DNA of 35,819 nt from positions 1 through 35,819 of IMG/VR virus record IMGVR_UViG_3300027896_000019; one strand, given 5' to 3'. The notes under the pieces are model-generated. The model was given only the letters and a program-made list of their open reading frames with translations. It was not told the DNA's origin and ran no database searches. Below are positions 33,233 to 35,598 of the stretch, one piece after another. Within the stretch, counting starts at the first letter, position 1; every line of letters begins with the position of its first letter. The translations under genes were made by a program, and so were the position numbers. Origin of the DNA: a virus (lineage: Duplodnaviria; Heunggongvirae; Uroviricota; Caudoviricetes).

Positions 33233-33535
33233 TCAACGATATTCGTCCAACAACATCCAATCATCTGATAATAAATCTGTCTGTGATGCTAACCATGGAA
33301 CAACATTACCTTGTGCTGTTTTCATAGCAATATAAGCACCATATGGAACGTATTCACCAAACTCTTTTTTAGCAACATCAGTAACAGATTTATATGTGTT
33401 TTCTGGCACATAGTATATATACATATCTTTGCCATTCCAACCTTTTCTAGCAATCCTAATTCCTTTTTTCATTAATAATAATGCTGTGCCAAATGAGTAT
33501 AGTGGATTTTCAATAGCTCCATGTTCATTTGTCAT
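33233..33535 (-). CDS. DUF2829 protein (Tad2-like immune signal sponge)
   Basis: SFGTAL..MKKG.RIARKGWNGKDMYIY and IAMKTAQG..VPWLASQTDLLSDDW, the DUF2829 signature. Confidence 0.85.
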   Translation of the reverse strand: MTNEHGAIENPLYSFGTALLLMKKGIRIARKGWNGKDMYIYYVPENTYKSVTDVAKKEFGEYVPYGAYIAMKTAQGNVVPWLASQTDLLSDDWMLLDEYR

Positions 33536-34062: not shown

Positions 34063-34305
34063 TTATAATAATTCACTATCATATTGATGTTGTAAGTTAA
34101 TCCAAAAACTAGCATCAATATTTAATGAATATTGTAGATGGTTAGCAAACCCATCAGTAATAGGTTTAATACCATTTAATACTTGGTTTATATAAGCAAC
34201 TGATGAACCTGTTCTAATTGCTAAATATTCAACAGTCATATTTCTTTCCTTCATAACATCTCTTAGCGTATCTCCTGCATGTAATCTAATTTTTCTTTTA
34301 GCCAT
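34063..34305 (-). CDS. HigA/VapI-like XRE protein
   Basis: HAGDTLRD...MTVEYLA...INQVLNG..PIT...FWINLQHQYD; start MAKRK after AAGGAG. Confidence 0.8.
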   Translation of the reverse strand: MAKRKIRLHAGDTLRDVMKERNMTVEYLAIRTGSSVAYINQVLNGIKPITDGFANHLQYSLNIDASFWINLQHQYDSELL

Positions 34306-34468
34306 TATCATTCTCCTTAATAGTAACCATACCTAAAATATTTACTAATACAATCGCAACACACAAACCAAATCCAACATAATCATGAGTAGATAGAAAT
34401 AATAAAGCTCCAACAGATGATAACAAAGCTACAATAAACATTAACAATTGAACTAAATGTTTACCCAT
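34298..34468 (-). CDS. Small two-TM membrane protein
   Basis: Two hydrophobic segments; SD GAGGT. Confidence 0.6.
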   Translation of the reverse strand: MGKHLVQLLMFIVALLSSVGALLFLSTHDYVGFGLCVAIVLVNILGMVTIKENDNG

Positions 34469-34643
34469 CGTATACCTCATAATCTTTAGTTAGAGCAATA
34501 TCCCAACATACATAACAGTCTTTATTATCACAATTACTGATAAGTCCAACATGGTGTGGACAGCAATGTGTAGGTTCATGTTTACTTAACAAATACAATA
34601 GCATTATTTTATTTTCATTCCAAGCCTTGCATATACCTATCAT
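34461..34643 (-). CDS. Cys-rich microprotein, family A; first gene of early operon
   Basis: CPHHVGL...C..DCYVCW..ALT; SD AGGAG. Confidence 0.7.
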   Translation of the reverse strand: MIGICKAWNENKIMLLYLLSKHEPTHCCPHHVGLISNCDNKDCYVCWDIALTKDYEVYDG

Positions 34644-34687
34644 ATCTCTCTCCTAAATATTTGAATTTAACATCGAACTATAGTACT

Positions 34688-34716
34688 AGTATACATTTTA
34701 TGTAGCTTTATGTCAA
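34688..34716 (-). promoter_or_regulatory. sigmaA promoter P1 (early operon)
   Basis: TTGACA (34711-34716), 17 bp, TATACT (34688-34693). Confidence 0.8.
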
Positions 34717-34747
34717 TTTGAAATTTTAGAATACCCCTCATATATAT

Positions 34748-34774
34748 AACAAAACCCCAACATATTGAGGGGGC
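34748..34774 (-). terminator. Hairpin/terminator closing the P2 unit
   Basis: Minus strand GCCCCCTCAATATGTTGGGGTTTTGTT. Confidence 0.55.
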
Positions 34775-34856
34775 TAATTTGTAGGTTATTAGCATATCAA
34801 CATGTTAGGGCTTTATTATACACAATTCATACTATACAAAAGATAAAGGCAAACTT

Positions 34857-34885
34857 AGTATACTATGATTAATTAATTATGTCAA
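34857..34885 (-). promoter_or_regulatory. sigmaA promoter P2
   Basis: TTGACA (34880-34885), 17 bp, TATACT (34857-34862). Confidence 0.8.
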
Positions 34886-34888
34886 TAC

Positions 34889-34955
34889 AAAATCCTACTT
34901 GGTTGATTTTATTTCTACTGGGAAGAAGTATAGTCTAATCAACTAGTAGGATTTT
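34889..34955 (-). terminator. Long hairpin closing the P3 unit
   Basis: aaaatcctact (34889-34899) / agtaggatttt (34945-34955), extended inward by gttgatt/aatcaac. Confidence 0.6.
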
Positions 34956-34986
34956 ATATATAAGTATACGCTACTGAATTAATTAT

Positions 34987-35015
34987 ATTATACATGTTTA
35001 TTTTAATATTGTCAA
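34987..35015 (-). promoter_or_regulatory. sigmaA promoter P3 (perfect consensus)
   Basis: TTGACA (35010-35015), 17 bp, TATAAT (34987-34992). Confidence 0.85.
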
Positions 35016-35066
35016 TAGAGAATCTATTGATGTTCTGTTAATTATCTGCTGATTGTCTGTTAATAC

Positions 35067-35094
35067 AAAAAAAACATCTACTGATAGATGTTTT
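35067..35094 (-). terminator. Terminator closing the P4 unit
   Basis: aaaacatcta (35071-35080) / tagatgtttt (35085-35094) plus T run on the minus strand. Confidence 0.7.
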
Positions 35095-35135
35095 AATGTG
35101 TCTCAACAATAAATTAGTAAATCGTATGTGGTTAC

Positions 35136-35164
35136 ATTATATATTGTTTTATTATATTTGTAAA
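35136..35164 (-). promoter_or_regulatory. sigmaA promoter P4
   Basis: TTTACA (35159-35164), 17 bp, TATAAT (35136-35141). Confidence 0.7.
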
Positions 35165-35167
35165 TAG

Positions 35168-35195
35168 AAAAACTATATAAATTAATATATAGTTT
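35168..35195 (-). terminator. AT-rich hairpin closing the P5 unit
   Basis: aaactatata (35170-35179) / tatatagttt (35186-35195), followed by TTC on the minus strand. Confidence 0.45.
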
Positions 35196-35261
35196 ATCTA
35201 TAACAAAAATTAGAAAAGGAAAAAAATGAAACAAATACAACTCTCAAGCACCATTATATTC

Positions 35262-35290
35262 ATTATAAGTTTAATTTTTTATTTTGTCAA
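35262..35290 (-). promoter_or_regulatory. sigmaA promoter P5 (perfect consensus)
   Basis: TTGACA (35285-35290), 17 bp, TATAAT (35262-35267). Confidence 0.85.
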
Positions 35291-35598
35291 CCTATTTTGA
35301 TTATTGGTATTTATTTACATATTTAACATGTTATATGGCTAATTTGTAGCTTAATAGTTTTTTTTATTTACTCAATGTACGGTAGAAGTAAATAACTTGT
35401 CTGTAAATGAGTGTATATGAAATATATGGTTGTAACGTAGTCATATCAAGGGGTTCAGCGTTTGAGTATTAATATTTATATAATGCGTGAAACGCAGTAG
35501 AACCAAGGGTCACAGGGTTTTGACTTATTTATTATTAATTTATCTCGGTATTAAAGTGAATCTAACATGATGTAGGTTATTTGGCATAGCGATTAACT

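Follow-up and report, generated by a model that had tools for sequence, protein, structure and literature searches.

A tandem array of promoters lies at the head of the leftward early region of a tailed phage, near one end of the window that we analysed (35,819 nucleotides, bases 1-35,819 of the 99,819-bp IMG/VR record IMGVR_UViG_3300027896_000019). The array occupies positions 34688-35290 of the minus strand and comprises five promoters, P5 to P1, the first four of which are each followed by a short segment that ends in a terminator-shaped hairpin. We confirmed that this array is non-random. With moderate confidence we read it as four independent small non-coding RNA (sRNA) genes, at P5, P4, P3 and P2, followed by P1, which would be the true promoter of the early operon.

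The promoters belong to the TTGACA/TATAAT class, the housekeeping type in low-GC Gram-positive bacteria. All five have spacers of 17 bp and match the consensus at 11 or 12 of 12 positions. P5 (35262..35290, -35 box starting at 35290) and P3 (34987..35015, -35 start 35015) are perfect TTGACA-17-TATAAT sites (12/12). The other three deviate at a single position (11/12): P4 is TTTACA-17-TATAAT (35136..35164, -35 start 35164), and P2 (34857..34885, -35 start 34885) and P1 (34688..34716, -35 start 34716) are both TTGACA-17-TATACT. The whole 99.8-kb genome holds 21 sites of at least 11/12 on its two strands. When the 700-bp region was shuffled 3000 times with its dinucleotides preserved, it held 0.076 promoter sites on average and 3 at most, against the five observed (Poisson P ∼2e-8). 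P1 is the sole promoter that reaches a gene: a 38-nt leader with the Shine-Dalgarno (SD) sequence AGGAGAGAG (34640..34681, minus strand) leads to the ATG at 34643, the start of the first early gene (34643-34461, minus strand, 60 amino acids). A preliminary description of this DNA had reported five co-oriented, near-perfect promoters with 17-bp spacers and only P1 leading to a gene, and both observations stand.

Two further features lie in or beside the promoters. The variant -10 box TATACT of the two gene-proximal promoters sits inside short palindromes (GTATAC, AGTATACT) at 34688-34700 and 34857-34866 on the minus strand, and a 12-nt copy of this motif recurs at 35824-35835; the palindromes may be an operator for the helix-turn-helix (HTH) protein encoded by the third early gene. 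Two direct 21-nt repeats (ATTAACAGAnnATCAnnAGAT; 35022..35064, minus strand) stand between the terminator of P4 and the -35 box of P3, and there is no further copy of them in this genome or in that of its closest complete relative (G001, described below). These repeats are a possible site for a P3-specific regulator.

The RNA bounds and lengths that follow are deduced from the sequence. The P5 RNA (35162..35255, ∼90 nt) has an unstructured 5′ part with a CU-rich stretch at 35224-35210 and an AU-rich, 10-bp hairpin at 35195-35170 (-7.5 kcal/mol) followed by a U-rich tract. The P4 RNA (35062..35129, ∼65 nt) ends in a hairpin with a 4-nt loop (35093-35072, -7.0 kcal/mol) and eight U residues. Both of these are simple AU-rich terminator stems. 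The other two RNAs carry much larger structures. The P3 RNA (34884..34980, ∼95 nt) forms a long, bulged hairpin of ∼22 bp (∼11+7+4 bp; 34952-34892, -16.5 kcal/mol) with the apical loop UCUUCCC, and its U-tract overlaps the P2 -35 box. The P2 RNA (34745..34850, ∼105 nt) consists of a CU-rich 5′ tail, a very long hairpin of ∼24+6 bp and a U-rich tract; the hairpin core (34811-34754) has a folding energy of -25.3 kcal/mol, and A/U pairing extends it to ∼34821-34745. Compared with shuffled sequences, the folds have z scores of -6.93 (P2), -4.77 (P3), -2.85 (P5) and -1.4 (P4). All four RNAs run on the minus strand.

Terminator-shaped sites are also concentrated in the array. Under a relaxed uniform rule applied to the whole genome (a compact hairpin with an energy of at most -7 kcal/mol plus a U-rich tail), sites occur at 0.58 per kb on the minus strand; the 520-bp array has four where 0.28 are expected (P 2e-4). 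A stricter scan that demands GC pairs flagged the P2 site alone. The order is promoter, RNA, terminator, in strict alternation four times over, and then P1, and the U-tracts of the P5 and P3 hairpins extend into the next -35 box. Segments of 88, 63, 95 and 100 nt, each closed by a hairpin, had been described earlier, two of the hairpins almost touching the next -35 box; the lengths agree with what we find. The size of the P2 and P3 structures had been understated (z -6.9 and -4.8).

No ORF (open reading frame) led by an SD sequence lies on the transcribed strand after P5, P4, P3 or P2. The earlier statement that the units lack coding capacity therefore holds, with two footnotes: a 45-amino-acid ORF with a TTG start (35240-35103), which is not credible and crosses a promoter as well as a terminator, and a doubtful 24-amino-acid ORF on the opposite strand, to which we return below. 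The four RNA bodies show no similarity to one another or to any other part of the genome and are thus not paralogous units. Pyrimidine-rich, single-stranded stretches with runs of C occur in the P5 tail, in the P2 tail and in the P3 apical loop, and the P5 stretch is the one that had been singled out as resembling an anti-SD sequence. In style they recall Firmicute sRNAs that pair with SD sequences. The P2 tail has a 15-nt match at 45,172-45,186, which we set aside: the site is intergenic, TA-rich and without evident meaning.

Just upstream of P5, at 35325-35357, is a degenerate partial copy of the inner P2 hairpin (19 of 21 nt identical) together with adjoining AACATGTT. It may be what is left of a sixth unit that has decayed.

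The layout of a related phage gives the strongest argument for RNA genes over operon boosters. The closest complete relative, G001, was found through its terminase (67% identical); it is 128,062 bp long with direct terminal repeats, and its backbone is syntenic with the present genome, whereas its early region is not. Within this variable early region, at 51,887-50,950 on the minus strand, G001 has an analogous row: five to seven units, again built of promoter, RNA and terminator but different in sequence. The promoters score 12/12, 10/12, 10/12, 12/12 and 11/12, with two weaker candidates, and 60-100 nt follow each promoter. All seven candidate RNAs end in an A-tract, a hairpin and a U-tract. 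The uniform rule finds five terminators in the row against 0.38 expected (P 5e-5), and the strict scan finds 13 sites in 6 kb against 2.2 expected. Two of the units, B2 and C, likewise have pyrimidine-rich single-stranded stretches (CUCCUU, CCUCCC). Importantly for the argument, the G001 row is flanked by plus-strand genes: ORFs of 216 and 115 amino acids end at 50,767 on one side, and a 329-amino-acid RepA_N-like ORF starts at 51,947 on the other. The row thus lies antisense between plus-strand genes, there is no operon for it to feed, and its promoters can only make short RNAs. Because promoters and terminators cluster and alternate here, and because the row in the relative has no co-oriented gene downstream, the view of the array as a cassette is supported. 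That view had been put forward in the preliminary description, and the notion of a built cassette of short non-coding RNA units has survived; the functions proposed for it gained no support from our tests.

If the array does consist of four RNA genes followed by P1, host RNA polymerase would fire all five promoters once the DNA enters the cell and, were the phage temperate and the promoters unrepressed, would also fire them from the prophage. Most P5, P4, P3 and P2 transcripts would stop at their own terminators and accumulate as stable hairpin RNAs, and read-through from these promoters would add to transcription from P1. We suggest, with lower confidence, that the RNAs would act by base pairing with translation-initiation regions, like the CU-rich or UCCC-loop sRNAs of Firmicutes. 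For the first early gene in particular, the P3 5′ tail could pair with the AUG and the codons just after it.

This last pairing came from an a priori question, asked of the four RNAs and the gene adjacent to the array, in which P3 stood out. The P3 5′ tail and the start of the first gene can form 12 contiguous pairs, a 1-nt bulge and 4 more pairs across the AUG and codons 2-5, and three additional pairs reach the SD sequence. The duplex of the tail alone with the initiation region has an energy of -18.9 kcal/mol, which 0.25-0.3% of dinucleotide shuffles equal (p ∼0.003), and the pairing ranks second or third of the non-self sites in 16,630 genome windows. Allowing for four RNAs the value is ∼0.01, and we regard the pairing as suggestive. 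Target prediction, which had been proposed as a check, gave nothing further: when the four RNAs were scanned blindly for duplexes with all 160 initiation regions of the phage, nothing rose above shuffled controls.

Searches for relatives of the locus were largely empty. Neither megablast nor blastn of the region against INPHARED gave a match; IMG/VR has no relatives of the first two small early proteins beside the region, and a search of a 5.8-billion protein set with an early small protein found only itself. A comparison of both rows with Rfam, including CRISPR-DR (CRISPR direct repeats), gave no family: the best E value was 0.63 or worse, far under gathering scores. The Rfam and CRISPR-repeat check recommended at the outset has thus been run, and nothing matched. 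Two other routes were abandoned. A scan of IMG/VR for a P5-type terminator pattern returned 15 stretches, of which only the known relative was meaningful, and homologues of the RepA_N-like gene of G001 led to unrelated smaller phages without arrays.

Several findings weigh against the reading of the array as four sRNA genes. With energies of ∼-7 kcal/mol, the hairpins of P5 and P4 are weak, and much transcription may run through them. P5, P4 and P2 have no conspicuous phage target, the P3 pairing is one match among several tests in TA-rich sequence, and a duplex scan of the G001 units against their neighbouring genes gave neither a target nor an equivalent of P3. Two contigs from other samples carry the locus, and they are 100% identical to it, so that there is no covariation to read. 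Among sequencing runs that contain the sequence there is no RNA run and one DNA run only, probably the source freshwater metagenome. Global alignment of the two rows is no better than that of random or AT-rich control segments (z 1.2). The P5 terminator does resemble that of unit B2 in G001, with identical flanks and loop and with compensatory changes in the middle of the stem (z 5 against shuffles); higher-scoring windows exist, however, elsewhere in G001. We therefore rejected collinear orthology of the units: no single RNA is shown to be conserved between the rows, and the architecture alone recurs. Finally, two more distant relatives, a 92-kb JGI contig and an 86-kb contig binned in a Clostridium metagenome-assembled genome (MAG; terminase 54% identical), have gene-free, AT-rich divergent regions and no dense row of consensus promoters. 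The promoter-RNA-terminator row is thus recurrent in the lineage, not universal.

Other explanations have to be weighed against four sRNA genes followed by P1. The array could be a tandem early promoter stack in the style of T7 A1-A3, which loads host RNA polymerase onto the early operon and yields the short RNAs as by-products; the hairpins would then act as attenuators that leak, as insulators that prevent promoter occlusion, or as RNase III or stability elements of a long leader. We consider this unlikely, though it has points in its favour: the five promoters point the same way as the early operon and lie directly upstream of it, the P5 and P4 hairpins are weak, and the long P2 and P3 stems resemble RNase III substrates. 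Yet a stack of this kind would be thwarted by four consecutive terminator-shaped sites, and G001 has the same architecture with no co-oriented gene downstream. The layout is not one of uninterrupted reading from all promoters into the operon, as in T7, for every upstream promoter has a terminator-shaped hairpin after it. A mere feeding of the early operon by the promoters, the outcome that the preliminary description had taken as fatal to its proposal, is ruled out by gene layout in G001; for the present phage it is still a rival. An RNA polymerase sink, an aid to DNA entry, or a source of negative supercoils that opens an origin in the adjacent 2-kb AT-rich, repeat-bearing region would make the promoters a DNA-level device and the RNAs irrelevant. 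The array does border a gene-poor, AT-rich repeat region (35,300-37,450) and fires away from it, and the G001 row abuts the RepA_N-like initiator gene with iteron-like hairpins nearby. Quick-release terminators, however, are ill-suited to a sink, short untranslated RNAs give little torsional drag, and none of these roles needs RNA bodies that are structured and non-random. Of all the alternatives we rate this the least probable.

Two further proposals give the RNAs a different job. In one, which we judge improbable, the array is an RNA arsenal: a modular, swappable cassette of unrelated, independently transcribed hairpin RNAs, kept by a group of large phages with low-GC Gram-positive hosts. 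The RNAs would be the first products of infection, each disarming a different host RNA-binding defence or regulator. As decoys they would imitate RNAs of the host to which defence proteins bind (CRISPR repeats, as Racr RNAs do, or antitoxin RNAs, for example), and they would be expressed first, at the head of an anti-defence island, and gained and lost between relatives like anti-defence protein genes. Strong private promoters and hairpin RNAs would fit, as would a HigA-like HTH gene 0.4 kb downstream and a Tad2-like gene 1.2 kb downstream, and there is the precedent of Racr, solitary hairpin RNAs with their own promoters near acr genes (PMC10651486). The functions suggested at the outset, CRISPR-repeat mimicry and type III antitoxins, nevertheless found no support. 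The array has no CRISPR-DR or other Rfam match; the RNAs have no array-like matches in the Clostridium MAG G010, which contains the related phage contig and represents a candidate host lineage; and none of the four RNAs contains ToxI-type tandem repeats (∼30-40 nt). The P4 stem and 3′ end recall the Cas12a handle, and the P2 core a Cas13a handle; at ∼9 nt, both likenesses are within chance. VIPR guide RNAs (vrRNAs), which are made of alternating GGY/NN 5-nt repeats (10.64898/2026.04.26.720920), are ruled out, as the sequence has no GGY/NN repeats. The remaining proposal, to which we give slightly less credence than to an arsenal, gives the P5 unit the antisense role in a pair like those of type I toxin-antitoxin systems. 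Its partner on the plus strand would be the doubtful 24-amino-acid hydrophobic peptide mentioned above (35227..35301, MKQIQLSS...), whose ORF is fully antisense to the P5 promoter and RNA. Its SD-like AAAGGA stands 7 nt ahead of the ATG and is the exact complement of the P5 stretch described as anti-SD-like, and the P5 RNA would cover both SD and coding region; moreover, SPbeta-type prophages carry type I toxin-antitoxin pairs. By contrast, the plus-strand promoter is weak (9/12) and has no clear terminator, the hydrophobic run is only ∼16 residues and lacks a charged tail, no plus-strand ORF accompanies B2, the most similar unit of G001, and such ORFs arise by chance in AT-rich DNA.

The wider setting of the array is that of a large phage with divergent gene blocks. 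The record has a GC content of 29% and a CheckV completeness of 78%. Its minus strand carries every gene from 65 to 34,643, plus-strand genes start near 37,470-38,900, and the two blocks are separated by a gene-poor, AT-rich, repeat-bearing stretch of ∼2.8-4 kb. The terminase is of the type found in SPbeta (YonF), Clostridium phage c-st and Lactococcus phage 949 (27-33% identity), the named homologues of a conserved 241-amino-acid protein come from Bacillaceae, and a GTDB scan recovered one related contig, the 86-kb one binned in the Clostridium sp. MAG, which is weak evidence of host. A search of a protein atlas for the host returned viral clusters only. Together, the terminase type, the Bacillaceae homologues and the Clostridium-MAG contig place the phage in a lineage of large, siphovirus-like phages that infect low-GC Gram-positive bacteria, with the host at candidate level only. 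Outside the window, at 57,066-57,932 on the plus strand, a protein with the tyrosine recombinase fold (PF00589, E 1e-34) is encoded and is conserved in G001. Its presence in both phages makes a temperate or plasmid-prophage lifestyle possible. Integrase, dimer resolvase and MrpR-like repressor are its candidate functions, and the protein bears on whether the promoters would be silenced in a lysogen.

The early operon itself looks like an anti-defence island. Its third gene (34063-34311, minus strand) encodes the HigA-like HTH ‘antitoxin’ (phrog_1381, E 7e-12), with no toxin gene adjoining, and the Tad2-like gene (33233-33535, minus strand; PF11195, E 9.5e-25) lies 0.5 kb past it.

On the other side of the array, the AT-rich region holds several families of repeats. 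Between 35598 and 35677, extending to ∼35725, ORF-free DNA contains ∼2.8-4 copies of a 29-bp repeat with the plus-strand core TATAGTGTAGGA. At 35431-35509 there are two copies of a motif like ACCC(C)TTGnT...ACTnCG. Both are candidate protein-binding, packaging or terminus sites. Beyond the window, the stretch 35,800-37,450 is very AT-rich and gene-free and has several repeat families, among them GTTTTAACCATGTAAAATAATC, present twice, 396 bp apart. Related phages, too, have a gene-free, AT-rich divergent region of 2-3 kb (L049 5331-8036), and the stretch is a candidate origin or genome end. In G001, three overlapping hairpin-forming repeats TCATGAACTTTATGTTCATGA lie just after the RepA_N-like gene (∼53,030-53,095; L021 5029-5096) and look like origin iterons. 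A GGGTATAAT box downstream of the last unit of the G001 row (L021 2850-2866, minus strand) resembles the extended -10 motif GGTATAAT and may mark a second promoter class.

Knowledge of phage sRNAs is still patchy, above all for phages with Gram-positive hosts, and gene-calling programs pass over them. A row of four to seven mutually unrelated RNA mini-genes with consensus promoters, placed right at the start of an early anti-defence region and recurring with other sequences in a relative, suggests a fast-evolving RNA tool-kit with which the phage would take over its host or counter the host’s defences. Should the RNAs accumulate, each of them would define a new RNA family, supplied with a strong promoter and a terminator, and would offer a clean system in which to find targets. 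If they do not, the locus would be an unusually ornate early promoter region.

How does the array compare with known systems? The T7 promoters A1, A2 and A3 are strong host-type promoters that feed the early operon with no terminator between them. The present array likewise stacks very strong host-type promoters co-directionally at the start of the early region, but a terminator-shaped hairpin comes after every upstream promoter of the array, and the row in the relative has no operon to feed. Antisense or neighbour-acting phage sRNAs are known from P22 (sar-ant), P1/P7 (c4-icd/ant) and lambda (OOP-cII). The predicted pairing of the P3 tail would resemble these: in each case the initiation region of a phage gene is the pairing partner of a short phage RNA that ends in a terminator and is encoded nearby. 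P3, however, is neither opposite its putative target nor in the same leader, and the pairing is a prediction (p ∼0.003) that is not conserved in G001.

The Racr RNA anti-CRISPRs are defined by their likeness to a CRISPR repeat (PMC10651486). They share with the array the combination of short hairpin RNAs, strong promoters of their own and neighbouring phage anti-defence genes. For our RNAs no such likeness was found within what the comparison covered, namely Rfam and the Clostridium MAG G010 of a candidate host lineage. A large Firmicute phage offers another parallel: Listeria phage CKA15 (P100-like, Herelleviridae) has three highly transcribed non-coding loci within ∼500 bp (PMC12282133). There, as here, adjacent promoter-bearing loci without ribosome-binding sites are read as non-coding RNAs of unknown function. 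The CKA15 loci are supported by RNA sequencing and have neither canonical intrinsic terminators nor UCCC motifs, whereas the present array, known from its sequence alone, has canonical terminators and one UCCC loop; the comparison of the two is by description.

A bacterial counterpart of the layout is also known. The LhrC1-4 genes of Listeria monocytogenes are tandem, head-to-tail sRNA genes, each with its own promoter and terminator, and LhrC RNAs have CU-rich or UCCC motifs in a single-stranded stretch and in the terminator loop that pair with SD regions. The array has the same plan of a head-to-tail row with private promoters and terminators. The LhrC copies, however, are siblings of one family, under one regulator and chromosomal, whereas the four RNAs proposed here are unrelated, phage-borne and served by consensus promoters. 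We conclude that the array is a credible new phage sRNA cluster, of a kind already known from clustered phage sRNA genes.

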